DNA of 64,000 bases from Escherichia coli (GTDB taxonomy: Bacteria > Pseudomonadota > Gammaproteobacteria > Enterobacterales > Enterobacteriaceae), in NCBI RefSeq assembly GCF_003334405.1, contig NZ_QOWM01000007.1; one strand, given 5' to 3'. Under the pieces are notes generated by a model. That model did no database searches, was not told where the DNA came from, and saw nothing but the letters and a program-made list of their open reading frames with translations. Of the stretch, positions 1,127-10,423 are shown in pieces. Both the position numbers and the translations under genes were made by a program. Every line of letters starts with the position of its first letter. Position 1 is the stretch's first letter.

Positions 1127-2554
1127 ATGAGCGATAAAAAGAAGCGCAGTATGGCGGGTTTGCCGTGGATCGCGGCGATGGCCTTCTTCATGCAGGCACT
1201 TGATGCCACTATTCTTAATACCGCCTTACCCGCAATCGCTCATAGCCTTAATCGTTCTCCTCTCGCGATGCAATCAGCCATCATCAGTTATACGCTGACG
1301 GTGGCGATGCTTATTCCGGTAAGCGGATGGCTAGCCGATCGCTTCGGTACGCGTCGCATTTTTACCCTTGCCGTGAGTCTGTTCACATTGGGTTCTCTGG
1401 CCTGCGCACTTTCTAATTCGCTACCACAGCTGGTTGTCTTCCGGGTTATTCAGGGGATAGGCGGCGCAATGATGATGCCTGTTGCTCGGCTGGCCTTACT
1501 GCGCGCTTATCCTCGTAATGAACTTCTTCCAGTATTGAATTTTGTCGCCATGCCGGGTCTGGTGGGGCCAATTTTAGGCCCCGTTCTTGGCGGCGTGCTG
1601 GTCACCTGGGCAACCTGGCACTGGATATTTTTAATCAATATCCCCATAGGTATTGCGGGCCTTCTTTACGCGCGCAAACATATGCCCAATTTCACCACCG
1701 CACGACGCAGATTCGATATCACTGGCTTTTTGCTGTTTGGCCTCAGCCTTGTTCTCTTCTCAAGCGGAATAGAGCTATTCGGGGAAAAGATTGTCGCCAG
1801 CTGGATTGCCTTGACGGTAATTGTCACCAGCATCGGGTTACTGCTTCTCTATATTCTCCATGCACGACGCACGCCAAACCCATTAATTTCATTAGATTTA
1901 TTTAAAACCCGCACTTTCTCGATCGGTATCGTAGGCAATATTGCAACCCGTCTGGGGACCGGCTGTGTACCGTTCCTTATGCCATTGATGTTACAGGTAG
2001 GATTTGGTTATCAGGCGTTTATTGCTGGCTGTATGATGGCACCGACAGCGTTAGGTTCCATTATTGCAAAATCGATGGTTACCCAAGTCTTACGTCGTCT
2101 GGGCTATCGCCATACGTTAGTGGGGATCACGGTGATTATTGGGCTAATGATCGCTCAGTTCTCTTTGCAATCACCAGCAATGGCTATATGGATGCTGATC
2201 TTGCCGTTGTTTATATTAGGGATGGCTATGTCGACGCAGTTTACCGCGATGAATACCATCACACTTGCCGATCTGACCGATGACAATGCCAGCAGCGGTA
2301 ACAGTGTTCTGGCGGTCACGCAGCAACTGTCGATTAGTTTAGGCGTTGCTGTAAGTGCGGCCGTCCTTCGCGTTTATGAAGGAATGGAAGGCACAACGAC
2401 TGTCGAACAATTCCACTATACGTTTATCACAATGGGCATTATTACTGTTGCTTCAGCAGCAATGTTCATGCTTCTGAAAACAACCGATGGTAATAATTTG
2501 ATCAAAAGACAGCGTAAATCTAAGCCGAACCGCGTTCCATCAGAATCGGAGTAA
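1127..2554 (+). CDS. hsrA: MFS (DHA2-type) efflux transporter
   Basis: 475-aa ORF, multi-TM hydrophobic profile, MFS motifs; synteny. Confidence 0.9.
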
Positions 2555-3512
2555 GTTGTAATCGTTGTTGCTGAAGGGTCGGCTGGGTTATCCGATGGAT
2601 GAGTACATCAATCGCCAGCTCCCCCAGTTCATCTTTCGGTTGGTGGATAGTGGTTAATGGTGGCGTCATAAAGCTTGCCAGTTCGATATCGTCATAGCCA
2701 ATCACCGCGATATCCTGCGGAACCTGTAACTCTGCCTGATATAACGCCTGGTAAACGCCAACAGCCATAGCGTCATTTCCGGTAAAGACGGCCTGAGGAC
2801 GCAGCGGATGTGATAGCAGTTGGCGCATAGCGTCAAACCCGCCGTTAAATTCAAAATCACCAGTGACTTCATAGCCATCAGGAATGTTGAGACCCGCACG
2901 TTTCATCGCCGCCCGATAACCTTCCAACCGCAGGCGCGCCGGAGTTTTATCCAGCGGGCCGGTAATACAGGCGATACGGGTATGACCTTTATCGATCAGA
3001 TATTGCGTTGCTAAGTCTCCGCCCAGCAACGAGTTATCCTGAATAAGATCGCTGTCGCCATCGAACGGAGCCCAGTCCATCATCACAGTAGGCACTGTCG
3101 GATAACGTTGCATGATTTCACGCGAAGGTTGATGCGTTTCGGTGCACAGTAACAGCAAGCCATCAACGCGTTTTTGCATCAGCGTTTCCAGATTGCGATT
3201 CATCCGCTGTTCATCGCCTTCGGTATTGCAAAGGACGAGACTATAACCGCGTTCGAAGCAGCTGCGTTCAACGCCACGCACCAGTTCTGAATAGAAAGGA
3301 TTGGTACTGGCAGTGATCAACATGCCAATGGTATGTGTTTGATTGAGTTTGAGGCTACGCGCCAGAGCTGATGGCGCGTAATTGAGTTCTTTAATCGCCG
3401 CTTCAACTTTGGCGGTAATCGCTTCACTGACGAAGCGATCTTTATTGATAACGTGAGAAACTGTTGAGGTAGAAACGCCCGCCAGGCGGGCAACATCTTT
3501 CATTGTAGCCAA
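2520..3512 (-). CDS. rbsR: ribose operon repressor, LacI family
   Basis: 330-aa ORF; N-terminal LacI-type HTH ([24 protein letters not shown]); last gene of rbs cluster. Confidence 0.95.
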
Positions 3513-3515
3513 GCG

Positions 3516-4445
3516 TCACCTCTGCCTGTCTAAAAATGCGTCGATCTCTTCACGCCACGGTACGGAAGGTTGTGCGCCTTTACGTGTTACGGCAATCGCA
3601 GCGGCAGCATGGGCAAAACGAATCGCCTCTGGCAATGGTTTTTCTTCCAGCAATGCCGTGATTAACGCACCGTTAAAGGTATCTCCGGCAGCAATGGTAT
3701 CGACAGCCTGCACCCGGAATCCAGGAACGCGCTGACCTTCACCATTCACGCTAGCCCATACACCACGACTTCCTAAAGTAATCAGTACAGTACGGATACC
3801 TTTTTCATGCAGTACCTGCGCCGCCTTCGCTGCATCTTCATCATTTTCAACACGAATACCGGTGAGCTTTTCTGCTTCCGTTTCGTTTGGCGTAATAATG
3901 TCCACCAGCGCCAGCAGTTCGTCAGGAAGTTCGCGAGCCGGAGCCGGGTTAAGCGCAACGATAGTCTTATTTTGATGGGCGATTTTCGCCGCTGCCATCA
4001 CACTTTCGAGTGGTGATTCCAGCTGCATTAATAATGCTGACGCGTTGGCAATACGCTCACGTTGCGCTTCCACCAGCGCCGGGGAAAGGGCAGCATTAGC
4101 GCCGGCATGAATACCGATGACATTCTCACCTTCGCCATTAACAAAAATCAGCGCCACACCTGTTGATTCGCCTTTGATCACGCTGACCGGAGTAATATCA
4201 ATGTTATCAGTGGCGAGCTGCTGGCGAACGCTCTCACCAATGCTGTCATCACCCGTACAGGCAATAAACGCGATATTCGCACCGCTACGCCCAGCAGCCA
4301 CAGCCTGATTCGCGCCTTTGCCGCCAAATGCAACCTGATAGTGGTTACCGGTTACGGTTTCGCCTGGAGTAGGAAAAGATTGAAGATTAAGAATGTGGTC
4401 AGCATTAATGCTGCCAAGAACAACGAGGCTGCCTGCGTTTTGCAT
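3516..4445 (-). CDS. rbsK: ribokinase
   Basis: PfkB-family motifs (GGKGANQA, DTIAAGDTFNGAL); start taken at MQNAGSLVV (309 aa) rather than the longer ORF-track start. Confidence 0.93.
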   Translation of the reverse strand: MQNAGSLVVLGSINADHILNLQSFPTPGETVTGNHYQVAFGGKGANQAVAAGRSGANIAFIACTGDDSIGESVRQQLATDNIDITPVSVIKGESTGVALIFVNGEGENVIGIHAGANAALSPALVEAQRERIANASALLMQLESPLESVMAAAKIAHQNKTIVALNPAPARELPDELLALVDIITPNETEAEKLTGIRVENDEDAAKAAQVLHEKGIRTVLITLGSRGVWASVNGEGQRVPGFRVQAVDTIAAGDTFNGALITALLEEKPLPEAIRFAHAAAAIAVTRKGAQPSVPWREEIDAFLDRQR

Positions 4446-4570
4446 ATTCGGGATGTCCATAAAATGCGCCACCGTGTTAGGGTGGCGCGTGCCCTGCTTT
4501 TCTTTATATTACACGTTCATCTGTCGATGACGTATTTATGTCACCATCAGGTCATACAACCTGATTAAAA

Positions 4571-5461
4571 CTACTGCTTAACAACCAGTTTCAGATCAAC
4601 CGGATACTTAGCCTGAACTTTCTCGCCTTTCAGCACTTTATCTGCGGTTTCGACGCCTTTCGCGCCAATCTGATCGGGTAGCTGAGCGATAGTCGCTGCT
4701 AGTTTGCCATCATTCACCGCTTTTTCGCCATCCGGTGTACCGTCAAATCCGACGACCATCACATCCGATTTACCGGCAGTTTGCAGTGCGCGCAGCGCGC
4801 CCAGCGCCATTTCATCATTCTGCGCGAATACAGCCTGAACATCCGGATGAGCGGTCAACAGGTTCTGCATTACGTTCAAACCTTTAGTGCGATCAAAATC
4901 TGCTGGCTGGCTGGCAAGAACATTAAACTTGTGAGCAGCAACGGCCTGCTGGAAGCCTTCGCCACGTTCACGGGCTGCGGATGTACCAGCAATGCCTTGC
5001 AGCTCGATAACTTTGGCACCTTCACCCGCTTTCTTCGCGATGTAATCACCAGCGATTTTGCCGCCCAGTACGTTATCAGAAGCAATGTGGCTCACCACTT
5101 CACCTTTCGTTGCCTGGCGGTCAAGAGTGATAACCGGGATGTTCGCCTGGTTAGCCATCTTCACAGCATTACCCACTGCGTCGGAGTCGGTCGGGTTAAT
5201 CAGCAGAATTTTTGTGCCGCGAACGGTTAAGTCCTGCACGTTCGCCAGCTCTTTCGCCGGGTTGTTCTGGGAGTCCAGCACCACCAGGTTATAGCCAAGT
5301 TTATCCGCCTCTTTCTGCGCGCCATCTTTCAGCGATACAAAGAACGGGTTGTTAAGCGTGGAGACCACCAGCGCGATGGTGTCTTTTGCCATCGCATTCG
5401 CACTGACGGTGGCGCTTAGCGCAACAGCGGAAACCAGGGTAGCCAGTTTTTTCATGTTCAT
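4571..5461 (-). CDS. rbsB: periplasmic D-ribose-binding protein
   Basis: signal peptide [23 protein letters not shown] then periplasmic binding protein fold; 296 aa from the MNMKK start. Confidence 0.93.
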
Positions 5462-5485
5462 ATTCAAGATGTCCTGTAGTCGTTA

Positions 5486-6451
5486 TTACTGCTTTTTGTT
5501 GTCTACCAGCACCGCCAGCAAAATCACCACCGCTTTGACGATCATCTGGTAATAGGAGGAAACACCTAACAAATTCAATCCATTATTAAGGAAGCCAAGA
5601 ATTAATGCGCCGATCAACGTCCCAACAATGCGACCTTTTCCGCCCGCCAGACTCGTACCGCCCAGAACCACCGCAGCAATAGCATCCAGCTCATAGCCAG
5701 TCCCCGCCGTGGGTTGTGCGGAGGAGAGACGCGCCACTTCAATGATCCCGGCCAGCGATGCCAGCAGACCACAAAGAGAATAGACGATGATTTTGATTTT
5801 ATTGACGTTGATACCAGAAAGACGCGTTGCCGCTTCGTTGCCGCCCAGCGCGTAGATGTAACGCCCCAGACGCGTGTGATGCAGCATGTACCAGGCCGCG
5901 AGGAAGACAATCCCCATGATCCAGACTGGCGTCGGTACGCCCAGCGGACGACCAATACCAAACCAGCCAAACAGATCGGCGTTCTCAGTAAAGCCGGTAT
6001 TCACTGGGCTACCGTTGGTATAAACCATGGTCACGCCGCGCAGTAAAAGCATCATAACCAGCGTAGCGATAAACGCCTGGACGCGACCTTTCGCTACAAT
6101 CACCCCGGTTACCGCACCAATTGCGGCACCTAACGCGAGAGCAGCAGCGACAGCCACCAGCGCATTGACTTCAATGCCGACGATAGATGCAGCAACTGCG
6201 CCGGTCAGCGCCAACAGAGAACCTACCGATAAGTCGATGCCCGACGTCAGGATCACCAGCGTCATCCCGACCGCCATAATGGCGTTCACTGAGGTTTGCT
6301 GGAGAATATTGAATAAGTTATTGATGGTGAAAAAGTTCGGGCTTAACGTCGAGACAATCGCGATCAGCACCAGCAGAGCGATAAGCGATTTCTGCTCCAT
6401 CAGCCACGCTTTCGTGAAATAACGGCGACCAGAGACAGTCTGGGTTGTCAT
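5486..6451 (-). CDS. rbsC: ribose ABC transporter permease
   Basis: 321-aa polytopic membrane ORF; synteny in rbs operon. Confidence 0.95.
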   Translation of the reverse strand: MTTQTVSGRRYFTKAWLMEQKSLIALLVLIAIVSTLSPNFFTINNLFNILQQTSVNAIMAVGMTLVILTSGIDLSVGSLLALTGAVAASIVGIEVNALVAVAAALALGAAIGAVTGVIVAKGRVQAFIATLVMMLLLRGVTMVYTNGSPVNTGFTENADLFGWFGIGRPLGVPTPVWIMGIVFLAAWYMLHHTRLGRYIYALGGNEAATRLSGINVNKIKIIVYSLCGLLASLAGIIEVARLSSAQPTAGTGYELDAIAAVVLGGTSLAGGKGRIVGTLIGALILGFLNNGLNLLGVSSYYQMIVKAVVILLAVLVDNKKQ

Positions 6452-6455
6452 TTTT

Positions 6456-7961
6456 TTACTCCTGATTCACGCGATTAAGCTTGCCCACAGCGGCAGCCAT
6501 TAACACTTCCTGGGTGGCCTGCTCACGAGTAAATTCCCCGCTGAGATGCCCTTCATGCATGACGATGATGCGATCGCTCATGCCTAATACTTCTGGCATC
6601 TCCGATGACACCAGAATGATGCTCAAGCCATCGGCTTTGAACTGGTTAATCAGTTGATAGATCTCTTTTTTCGCGCCGACATCTACGCCACGGGTAGGTT
6701 CATCAAGGATCAACACTTTGGGGCGTGTCATCAGACCGCGGGCAATCGCCACTTTTTGCTGATTGCCACCGGAAAGCAGACCAATTGCCTGTTCCATCGA
6801 CGGAGTTTTCACATTAAACAGACGAATGAAATCACTCACAGCCTGCTGTTCATCGGCATGCTTCAAACTGCCGCCAGCGCGGCTGAAGTAGCGCAGCGCT
6901 GTCAGCGACATGTTCTCTTTTACTGACATGCCCAACACTAAACCGTCACGTTTACGGTCTTCGGAGATATACACAATGCCGTTTGCCAGGCCATCCTGCG
7001 GTGAACGGGTAACGACTTCATGCCCATCCAGGGTGACGTAACCGCTGGTGCGCGGTAGTGCGCCGTAGAGCACTTTCATCAGTTCGGTACGACCTGCGCC
7101 CATCAAACCAGAGACGCCAAGAATTTCGCCTTTGCGTAAAGTAAAAGAGACATCGTTAACGCCAGGTCCGCAGAGATTATCGACTTTCAGGCGGATATCT
7201 CCCGGCGCTTTGTCCAGGTGCGGATATTGATCTTCCAGCTTGCGACCCACCATCATCTCAATCAGCGAATCTTCGGTCAGTGATGCCACTTCGCGCTCAG
7301 CAATAAATTGCCCATCACGAAAAACGGTAACGTCATCGCAAATCTCGAAGATTTCTTTCATGCGGTGGGAGATATAGACAATACCGCGGCCTTGCGATTT
7401 CAGCTCGCGGATGACGCGGAACAGGGATTCGGTTTCGGTATCGGTCAGCGCATCGGTCGGTTCATCCATAATGATGACTTTCGACTCAAAGCTCAGCACT
7501 TTGGCGATTTCAACCATTTGCTGGTCACCGATGGAAAGATCGCCCACCAGCTTGTCGCTTTTAAAGCGCAGGTTAAGTTTAGCCAGCAATTTATCCGCTT
7601 CGGCATACATGGTTTTCCAGTCAATTTTGCCAAAGCGATTAACAAACTCACGACCGAGGAAAATGTTTTCGGCAATGGTCAACTGCGGGATCAGGTTCAG
7701 TTCCTGATGGATAATCCCAATCCCGGCTTCCTGGGAAGATTTTGGCCCGGTAAATGTCGTTTCTTTCCCCAGCCATAAAAGCGTACCGGCATCGCGAGTA
7801 TAGATGCCAGTAAGCACTTTCATCATGGTGGATTTACCCGCGCCGTTTTCGCCCACCAGCGCCATCACGCGGCCCGGATAGACATTTAACGCTGCGCCCG
7901 AGAGGGCTTTTACGCCCGGGAAGGCTTTATCGATGCCTTTAAGCTGAAGTAATGCTTCCAT
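6456..7961 (-). CDS. rbsA: ribose ABC transporter ATPase (duplicated NBD)
   Basis: 501 aa; two Walker A motifs ([18 protein letters not shown]) and ABC signature LSGGNQQK. Confidence 0.95.
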
Positions 7962-7968
7962 GACGGCC

Positions 7969-8388
7969 TCAGAACGTCACGCCAGCACAGAGAATGATAT
8001 TCGCATACGGAGAACATTCTCCGCTGCGAATTACCGCCTGACTTTCTGCGGTTTGTTGTTTGAATTGTTCATGCGTGGTGTAACGAATTTCAATGGTATT
8101 TCCCTGGTGTTTTTGCAGCTGCTCAAGGTGAGTGAGCAACGTTTCGTGGAGTTGCGGATTATGGTGTTTGATCTCTTCCGCGATAATGGCCGCCTCGACC
8201 TGCATTTCATTTGTGACGACGCCCAGCACCTGCATAAAAGAAGGTACACCCTGGGTTAATGCCATATCGATACGCGTTGTACTTTTGGGGATGGGTAAAC
8301 CAGCATCACACACCACCAGCGTATCGGTATGTCCCAGACGGGAGATCACCGATGAAATATCAGAATTAAGAACGGTGCCTTTTTTCAT
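7969..8388 (-). CDS. rbsD: D-ribose pyranase
   Basis: 139 aa from MKKGTVLN with SD GGAG upstream; first gene of rbs operon. Confidence 0.92.
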
Positions 8389-8399
8389 TTTTTTCTCCA

Positions 8400-8419
8400 T
8401 CAGCGAAACGTTTCGCTGA
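8400..8419. promoter_or_regulatory. RbsR operator (perfect 20-bp palindrome) in rbs 5' region
   Basis: TCAGCGAAACGTTTCGCTGA is its own reverse complement; lies 12 nt upstream of rbsD start codon. Confidence 0.8.
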
Positions 8420-8554
8420 CCCACAGTTTAATCCTGACTGAGTTGGGAAAACCATCGTGACGTTACGGAAATGTGATCAACCTCGAAACGTTTTACATGG
8501 TGATTAACCATGAAAACAAAAACGCCCCCTTATGAAGAAAGGAGGCGTCTGGCG

Positions 8555-10423
8555 TTAGATTTCGACCTGAGTACCCAGTTCGATAACCCTGTTTGGCGGG
8601 ATTTCAAATTGATCTGGTGCACGCAGCGCATTACGTTGCAGCAGCAAGTACAGCTTGCCGCGCAGACGCAAATACCACGGGCGTTTGCCGAGGATCAACG
8701 ACTCATGCGACATAAAGAAGGAGGTTTCCATCATCCGGCAACTTAATCCTTCCAGACCGCAGCGGTGGAAAACTTCTTCTACGTTTGGCGTTTCTCGCCA
8801 ACCATAACTTGCCACCACGCGCCAGAAAGTGGGCGACAGTTGTTCAATCTGTACCCGACGGACGTTATGGACATATGGAGCGTCTTCGGTGCGCAGAGTT
8901 AACAGAATCACCCGCTCATGCAATACCTTGTTATGTTTAAGGTTATGCATCAGCGCAAAGGGAATGACGTTGATTGCACGCGACATATACACCGCGGTCC
9001 CGGGCACGCGAACAGGCGGTGATTTCTCCAGCGAAGCAATCATCGCTTCCAGAGAGTTACCATGTTCATGCATCCGCCGCAGCAAGCGGAAACGCTCGCT
9101 CTTCCAGGTGGTCATCACGATAAACATCACAGTACCGAGGCTCAATGGCAACCAGCCGCCGGAGAGCAGTTTATCGAGGTTAGCGGTGAACAATGGAATA
9201 TCGACACAAAGGAAAGCAATCAGGATCAGCGCAACAAAATACTTATTCCAGTGCCAGTTCTGACGTGCCACGGTAGTCGAGAGAATAGACGTCAGCACCA
9301 TGGTTCCGGTCACCGCAATCCCGTACGCCGCCGCCAGGTTGCTGGAGTGCTCAAAGCTGACAATCACAATCACGACCGCGACATAGAGCATCCAGTTCAC
9401 AAACGGAATATAGATTTGCCCTGACTCCATTTCGGAGGTGTGAATAATGCGCATCGGCGACAAATATCCCAGACGTACCGCCTGACGCGTCAATGAGAAG
9501 ACGCCAGAGATAACCGCCTGCGAGGCAATTACCGTCGCCAGTGCGGCGATGATCAGCAGCGGGATCAGCGCCCAGTCCGGTGCCAACAGGAAGAACGGGT
9601 TCTTAATCGCTTCCGGGTTCTTTAACAACAGCGCTCCCTGACCGAAGTAATTAAGGGTCAAGGAAGGTAATACGACGGTGAACCACGCCAGGCGAATAGG
9701 GAACTTACCAAAGTGCCCCATATCAGCATACAGCGCCTCGACCCCCGTAATCGACAACACCACTGCCCCTAATGCAATAAAAGAAACCGTTTTGTATTCA
9801 AGGAAGAAATGCACCGCCCACATTGGATTCAGCGCATGCAGCACTTCCGGGTTAGCAATAATGCTACGTAACCCCAGTCCTGCCAGAATCAAAAACCAGG
9901 TCAGCATGATCGGCGCAAACAGCTTACCGACCATAGCCGTGCCATGTTTTTGAATCATAAATAATAAAGTGAGAACGATAATTGAGAGGGGAACTATCCA
10001 GGTATCCAGCTGCGGGGCGACGATTTCCAGACCTTCAATGGCTGACATCACCGAAATAGCGGGTGTTATGACGACTTCACCATAGAAAAAGCTGCCGCCG
10101 ATTAGCCCCATAATCACCAGCATTGATGTGGTTCGCGCCGACGTATTACGCCCGGCAAGCGACATCAACGTCAGGATCCCCCCCTCACCGGCGTTATCTG
10201 CCCGCATCACGAAGGTGAGATATTTAATGGAAACCACAAAGATTAGCAGCCAGAAGATCAGCGATAAAAAGCCAAACACGGCATCGCGTTCAACGCCAAA
10301 ACCAAACTGGCCGGACAAACATTCACGAAGTGTATATAACGGGCTGGTACCAATATCGCCGTAGACAACTCCAATCGCCGCGAGGGTAATCGCGGGCAAT
10401 GATTGCTTATTATCAGTGCTCAT
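8555..10423 (-). CDS. kup: low-affinity K+ uptake transporter Kup (TrkD)
   Basis: 622-aa ORF, KUP/HAK/KT family; synteny. Confidence 0.95.

Follow-up and report, generated by a model that had tools for sequence, protein, structure and literature searches.

The control region of the lac operon comprises the main operator O1 at +11, the CAP site at -61.5, and a weak auxiliary operator, O3, at -82, with a further operator, O2, located inside lacZ. Operators of the LacI/GalR family take the form of even palindromes of 16-22 bp with a central CG (Ravcheev 2014), and in complexes of the LacI family with DNA the seven base pairs nearest the centre of each half-site are contacted. The ribose operon is controlled by RbsR, which is described in papers citing Mauzy & Hermodson 1992 and Shimada 2013 as a ribose-released repressor of rbsDACBKR, its release by D-ribose having been reported in E. 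coli and, by EMSA, in Serratia. The operator rbsO, in the form of the 30-mer GTGGGTCAGCGAAACGTTTCGCTGATGGAG, was used for RbsR-DNA crystals, in which RbsR is a dimer (bioRxiv 10.1101/2025.04.02.646877; PDB 9ny7/9ny8). A 2012 paper gives the E. coli rbs operon just one annotated operator.

The window considered here, a stretch of 64,000 nucleotides (64 kb) of the E. coli chromosome, carries kup-rbsDACBKR on the minus strand, and positions 8389-8554 correspond exactly to the kup-rbsD intergenic region. An 801-bp query around the palindrome found in this region matched 5412 of 5426 complete E. coli genomes at 95-100% identity, with kup, rbsD, and rbsA as the annotated genes. The features of the locus are as follows.

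Stop at 8555, minus strand: kup, the gene upstream of rbsD.
8520..8550, minus strand: intrinsic terminator of kup, the upstream boundary of the rbs regulatory region.
8480..8499, minus strand: putative distal RbsR operator in its degenerate Escherichia form, centre 8489.5, predicted at about -71.5.
8469..8490, minus strand: CRP (cAMP receptor protein) site, 22-mer CGTTTCGAGGTTGATCACATTT, centre 8479.5, placed by conservation and geometry.
8449..8454, minus strand: weak -35 element TGGTTT, with an 18-nt spacer; TTGnnT in relatives.
8425..8430, minus strand: -10 hexamer TAAACT; TACACT or TAAACT at a fixed distance from the CRP site in relatives.
8400..8419, minus strand: rbsO, the primary operator for RbsR and the proximal of the two sites; its centre, 8409.5, has a predicted position of about +9.5.
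8398..8395 and 8388..8386, minus strand: Shine-Dalgarno sequence GGAG and rbsD start codon ATG.
8388..7969, minus strand: rbsD, with its ATG at 8388..8386.
8131..8150, minus strand: weak candidate for a third, internal RbsR-like site in rbsD, codons 81-85, TCCACGAAAC/GTTGCTCACT.
2520..3512, minus strand: rbsR, encoding the cognate LacI-family repressor of 330 aa, the last gene of the operon.

The RbsR protein of the window matches the 'Ribose operon repressor' of PDB entries 9ny7/9ny8 with E=6.5e-221; among its paralogs of solved structure, PurR (E=5e-95) is the nearest. The rbsR frame, whose 330 aa are those of the annotated and crystallised protein, starts with TTG rather than ATG (3510-3512, minus strand), 4 nt past the rbsK stop, and such a start would be consistent with low translation of the repressor. 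An Rfam search of positions 2000-9000 returned no RNA family. Within rbsD, serine codons 9, 13, and 16 (window region 8340-8365) exhibit unusually strong synonymous conservation in relatives, and the small RNA DsrA has been reported to pair with rbsD mRNA.

The proximal site, TCAGCGAAACGTTTCGCTGA at 8400-8419, consists of two 10-nt arms that are 100% complementary and separated by a spacer of 0, which confirms the exact 20-bp self-complementarity claimed in the initial annotation, and it represents the only perfect palindrome with arms of at least 8 nt in the 64-kb window. Perfect 20-bp palindromes appeared somewhere in 24 of 200 Markov-random windows, and by statistics alone the palindrome is only mildly unusual; its meaning derives instead from its position and from its identity to a published operator. 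It is separated from the rbsD ATG by 11 nt (8389-8399, including the Shine-Dalgarno GGAG at 8395-8398), so the distance of 12 nt given previously was essentially right. The site has the form typical of LacI/GalR-family operators, being an even palindrome of 20 bp with a central CG, and the cognate repressor gene, rbsR (2520-3512), lies in the same operon. The minus strand of the window from 8424 to 8395 reads GTGGGTCAGCGAAACGTTTCGCTGATGGAG base for base. The palindrome is rbsO, the published RbsR operator, just as its earlier assignment to RbsR as a LacI-family site had proposed; this part is already known and contributes nothing new. If transcribed from a start at about 8418, the palindrome would also fold, as the first part of the rbsD mRNA (8401-8418, minus strand), into a hairpin of 7 bp, predicted at -9.3 kcal/mol (z = -3.66) and located 2 nt ahead of the Shine-Dalgarno sequence; this modelled structure could alter mRNA stability or translation independently of RbsR.

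Upstream of rbsO, the 10-mer CGAAACGTTT, present in the palindrome at 8404-8413, recurs at 8484-8493, extending to CGAAACGTTTT at 8484-8494 with an extra T at 8494; the two copies are 80 bp apart start-to-start, and the centres of the two sites are likewise 80 bp apart. A second repeat had been noticed before and does exist, but its previous placement at 8473-8484 is wrong by 11 nt, as those positions in fact belong to the CRP site, of which they cover the TGTGA half. The overlap of the repeat with the CRP site had been overlooked. In the rbs sense, 8480..8499 reads CATGTAAAAC/GTTTCGAGGT, in which the right half-site, CGAAAC, has no mismatch and the innermost 8 bp, AAACGTTT, are perfectly palindromic. 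Over the seven contacted base pairs of both half-sites, the full motif is not present, the left half being GTAAAAC instead of GCGAAAC. A second exact match to the operator of at least 10 nt occurred by chance in 498 of 200,000 random 135-nt upstream regions (about 0.25%, P ~0.0025), whereas at the scale of the whole window the 12-mers with up to two mismatches are unremarkable (5 observed against 4.0 expected). Scored with matrices built from other species, the E. coli distal site reaches 3.7-7 bits, compared with about 27-30 bits for the sites of those species, and ranks 3rd to 16th in the 64-kb window. Taken alone, the E. coli distal site is not separable from a chance near-match. In the literature searched, made up mostly of non-subscription journals, no paper contained the distal-site sequence, and a search for RbsR ChIP or footprint data turned up no binding data for any distal site.

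The promoter of rbsD was placed from cross-species conservation rather than from a consensus scan. A scan of the intergenic region for the sigma-70 consensus gave no strong promoter, which is attributed to the dependence of the promoter on CRP and to its poor -35 element. In relatives, a conserved TtG block is located 25 nt from the CRP centre, and across loci the -10 hexamer keeps a fixed distance of 47 or 49 nt from that centre, with 49 nt in E. coli. The CRP core, TTCGA-N6-TCACA at 8487..8472, matches the consensus TGTGA-N6-TCACA at 8/10 positions, and the right 11-mer tGATCACATTT matches at 10/11. The stretch of DNA that forms the promoter-proximal half of the distal operator also forms the upstream half of the CRP site. 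The -10 hexamer TAAACT ends 15 nt ahead of the operator centre. Assuming that this hexamer spans -12 to -7, +1 would be 8418, and the predicted start of rbsD transcription, at about 8418/8417, falls within the operator's left arm. On this prediction, the distal repeat is centred at -71.5, the CRP site at -61.5, a class I position, and the palindrome at +9.5. The activity of an rbsD reporter has been found to rise with CRP activity and with added cAMP, and the only rbs start site given in the supplement to a Crp ChIP-exo paper is an internal one.

Related loci were collected by scanning 100,044 species genomes with the pattern GCGAAACGTTTCGC-N(5-30)-ATGAARAA, which represents only the proximal core and the rbsD start, so that the upstream region had no part in locus selection and all sampled genomes keep the exact proximal core. 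At least 120 loci matched, two of which were unrelated loci from Clostridia, leaving at least 118 rbs loci, which represent about 44 named genera of Enterobacterales. All 118 rbs loci among the matches listed encode a 139-aa RbsD followed by rbsA, and in each of the 68 that are long enough an RbsR homologue is present 4.8-5.1 kb downstream. Among these listed matches, the perfect 12/12 core CGAAACGTTTCG is found 77-80 bp (centre-to-centre) upstream of the proximal operator in 108 of 118 loci, i.e., the full operator core occupies the orthologous position of the distal site. The suggestion in the initial annotation that the repeat might be an auxiliary site is thereby upheld at the homologous position in relatives, where the palindrome is perfect, but less so for E. 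coli itself, whose copy is degenerate with two mismatches.

The relationship between the distal site and CRP is equally regular. Among the matches listed, 112 loci have their best CRP-like site on the downstream side of the distal palindrome at a centre-to-centre offset of exactly 10 bp, and the spacing between the two operators is 77 bp in 19 loci, 78 bp in 19, 79 bp in 49, and 80 bp in 30, within a range of 77-81 bp. Since only the distal-CRP offset is invariant, the distal site is positioned relative to CRP and not to the proximal operator. In the distal-anchored alignment of the listed matches, the consensus aGCGAAACGTTTCGAtggcGATCACA carries about 2 bits per column, with about 2 bits over aGCGAAACGTTTCGA and GATCACA, and sequence farther upstream carries about 0 bits. 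No base of the CRP-distal half, GCGAAAC, belongs to the CRP 22-mer, yet this half is near-invariant (C in 114/116, G in 115/116, and AAA in 116/116 of the distal sites among the matches listed), and because of this location its conservation is not explained by CRP. At position +6, an A is present in 113 of 116 distal sites and a C in all proximal sites among the matches listed, which fits a dual use, as the TGTGA of CRP requires A there; the conserved distal 14-mer equals the rbsO core except for this base that CRP needs. From such conservation, the upstream palindrome of the relatives is read as a genuine second operator of the RbsR type, at which RbsR would be expected to bind, fused to a genuine CRP site. 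Part of this may already be on record: a supplement of Ravcheev et al. 2014 (RegPrecise) predicts 17 RbsR sites for 11 regulons of Enterobacteriales, whereas regulons in other orders have about one each. Second sites in several species have probably been catalogued there as predictions, and the extra RbsR sites of RegPrecise are most probably the distal operator described here.

The degenerate form is shared within Escherichia. The E. coli window, a second Escherichia lineage (L047), and E. albertii (L005) all carry gatGTAAAACGTTTCGA, while Salmonella, Citrobacter, Klebsiella, Enterobacter, Yersinia, Serratia, Dickeya, and Proteus carry GCGAAACGTTTCGA. By parsimony, two transitions (GCGAAAC to GTAAAAC) would have arisen in the Escherichia stem; they affect the CRP-distal half-site, at positions 5 and 6 counted from the centre. 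An identical 50-mer is found in 5236 of the 5412 E. coli genomes, so the degenerate state is fixed in E. coli, and the E. coli distal copy is a degenerate ortholog that is probably weakly bound. Independent decay of the distal site was also observed in Xenorhabdus (L038), Tatumella (L046), and two Photorhabdus loci (L049 and L063). The sites there were altered by substitution or by the insertion of 1 nt (CGAAACGTTATCGA), and both the proximal operator and the GATCACA half of the CRP site were kept. Because decay occurred independently in Xenorhabdus, Tatumella, and some Photorhabdus, the distal site is dispensable.

Several other sequences in the window were considered. The internal site at 8131-8150, about 269 bp downstream of rbsO, contains one perfect half-site, and its GAA-ACG-TTG codons are essentially invariant in the 43-44 species that keep HETLL, a subset conditioned on amino acids; TTG accounts for only 13% of the leucine codons in these genes. 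Without conditioning on HETLL, the 8131-8150 segment ranks only 16th of 137 for third-position conservation. This site might be a pseudo-operator resembling lac O2 or might reflect mere clade inheritance. The near-palindrome TCAGCAAAACGTGTTGCTGC at 35498-35517, which comes second when the window is ranked by the RbsR matrix, lies inside a 286-aa ORF; like the other near-matches to the matrix, it was set aside because it falls within coding sequence and scores at chance level. Between the kup terminator and the distal site, and overlapping the decayed left half of the latter, a 10-nt inverted repeat (8492-8501 and 8507-8516, TTTACATGGT and ACCATGAAAA) has arms that are 90% complementary and separated by a 5-nt gap. 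It is absent from the other two Escherichia lineages and is probably due to chance.

A mechanism can be proposed on this basis. Without ribose, an RbsR dimer on rbsO (about +1 to +20) would block initiation or promoter escape; ribose would free RbsR, and cAMP-CRP at about -61.5 would then activate the weak rbsD promoter. Farther upstream, the promoter-side half of the distal operator, GTTTCGA, doubles as the upstream CRP half. The centres of the distal and CRP sites, exactly 10 bp apart, are separated by a single turn of the helix and face the same side, and RbsR and CRP would need the same major-groove bases (TTCGA). RbsR and CRP would be mutually exclusive because both would put recognition helices into the same major groove, and, on these steric grounds, RbsR on an intact distal site at -71.5 would exclude cAMP-CRP. 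Species with the intact site may thus possess a double lock, composed of anti-activation upstream and promoter blockade downstream, both of which ribose would open. In E. coli, the upstream lock would probably be weak and repression would be exerted mainly via rbsO, which agrees with the single annotated operator; there, the lock regarded as certain is the proximal one only, and any binding of RbsR to the distal site is deduced from its sequence.

The explanation as a whole, namely that rbsO is the primary operator and that a distal operator, degenerate in Escherichia, shares a half-site with CRP, is considered probable. A broader interpretation is offered more tentatively, as a distinct possibility that falls short of being probable: the ancestral enterobacterial ribose promoter may be a composite switch without a loop, perhaps with a lac-like set of three sites that includes the one inside rbsD, in which one 7-bp half-site is read by either RbsR or CRP. 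A dimeric LacI-family repressor would thereby govern activation as well as initiation, and E. coli would be among the few lineages whose upstream lock has decayed.

The strongest competitor, although unlikely, holds that the E. coli distal site is still a working weak auxiliary operator, similar to lac O3, that competes with CRP. Such a role would be compatible with the perfect half-site (CGAAAC) and palindromic AAACGTTT centre of the site, with its exact orthologous position, with its fixation in E. coli, and with a left half, ATGTAAAAC, that is unchanged in three Escherichia lineages whose adjoining upstream sequence is wholly different; yet the sequence common to these three lineages was rejected as proof of constraint, since they have diverged too little. 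The two mismatches occur, moreover, within the seven contacted base pairs, where the E. coli site has T and A while other distal sites among the matches listed have C in 114/116 and G in 115/116 and proximal sites are invariant, and E. coli is annotated with only one operator. In another study, RbsR bound the Serratia rbsD probe and not a gvrA probe with AAACGTTT, an observation offered in favour of a working site that shows the flanks to matter in both directions.

Cooperation of the distal and proximal operators through DNA looping, as between lac O1-O3 or gal OE-OI, with a single RbsR oligomer joining the two sites and the CRP-induced bend in between, is very improbable. The layout is indeed similar to that of lac, with an upstream auxiliary site, CRP at -61.5, and the main operator just past +1; the operator spacing is confined to 77-81 bp among the matches listed, and the possible third site inside rbsD would recall O2 inside lacZ. 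However, RbsR has 330 aa and its alignment with LacI ends at RbsR 311 and LacI 310, which leaves no room for a C-terminal tetramerisation helix, RbsR was crystallised as a dimer, and a LacI/RbsR chimera (LLhR) showed no dependence on operator spacing. Additionally, the operator spacing drifts by 4 bp (about 0.4 helical turn) while the distal-CRP offset does not vary, and 79-80 bp, about 7.5 turns, would be out of phase. Looping was rejected on the grounds of protein length, literature, and variable phasing. Hardly credible is the last alternative, that the upstream repeat is unrelated to RbsR and constitutes a chance match or just the weak half of a CRP site, which may invoke the unremarkable window-scale count of 12-mers, the matrix score of the E. 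coli site within the range of random hits, and the part of the repeat that truly belongs to the CRP site, but which is largely refuted by the conservation in relatives, where GCGAAAC outside the CRP 22-mer is near-invariant over about 44 genera among the matches listed next to a flank of about 0 bits and the 14-mer equals the rbsO core save the CRP-required base, as well as by the low probability (P ~0.0025) of the local 10-nt repeat.

With the primary rbsO and the degenerate distal operator retained as the preferred reading, the finding is ordinary overall, and its evolutionary side adds a modest twist. In synthetic biology and LacI-family biophysics, the E. coli rbs control region is employed as a part with one operator. 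It appears to be a reduced version of a design with two operators, conserved across Enterobacterales, in which the second operator shares bases with a CRP site. If RbsR and CRP do compete, the design would represent a compact integration of a repressor and a global activator on one half-site. If true, the preferred reading would provide a natural case of regulatory simplification in Escherichia and would change the rbs annotation in Salmonella, Klebsiella, Yersinia, and others, while the composite switch, if it existed, would explain the single-operator textbook description of E. coli rbs.

In comparison with described systems, the locus is most directly related to rbsO/RbsR (Mauzy & Hermodson 1992; bioRxiv 10.1101/2025.04.02.646877), with the same palindrome, flanks, repressor gene, operon, and inducer; in the papers covered here, the distal site is no part of the E. 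coli operator as used or annotated. The RegPrecise RbsR regulog for Enterobacteriales (Ravcheev et al. 2014) is likewise a comparative-genomics catalogue that implies second sites, and the paper makes no mention of a CRP-shared half-site, of a 10-bp offset, or of decay in Escherichia. Descriptions of the CRP-shared half-site or of its Escherichia decay were not found in the literature searched, a body of mostly non-subscription journals that does not include the 2001 Laikova paper on pentose regulons. PurR, the closest RbsR paralog (340 aa), recognises the same AAACGTTT core, and some of its targets (purR, purA) have two independently bound sites; in contrast to RbsR, its half-site is GCAAAC rather than CGAAAC, it needs a corepressor, and its second sites overlap no CRP site. 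CytR at deoP2, cdd, and udp similarly represents a LacI-family repressor that neutralises CRP activation at catabolic promoters, but it binds beside CRP cooperatively and contacts it, whereas the sharing of a half-site in rbs would predict competition. As a LacI-family member that does not compete with CRP, CytR weighs against exclusion between RbsR and CRP. The rbs region resembles lac in its LacI-family repressor, main operator past the predicted start, class I CRP site at a predicted -61.5, putative weaker upstream auxiliary site, and possible intragenic pseudo-operator. The two differ in that O3 lies about 20 bp from the CAP centre with no bases in common, while the rbs distal site shares a half-site with CRP, and in that LacI is a DNA-looping tetramer, while RbsR lacks a tetramerisation segment and the rbs operator spacing is unphased.
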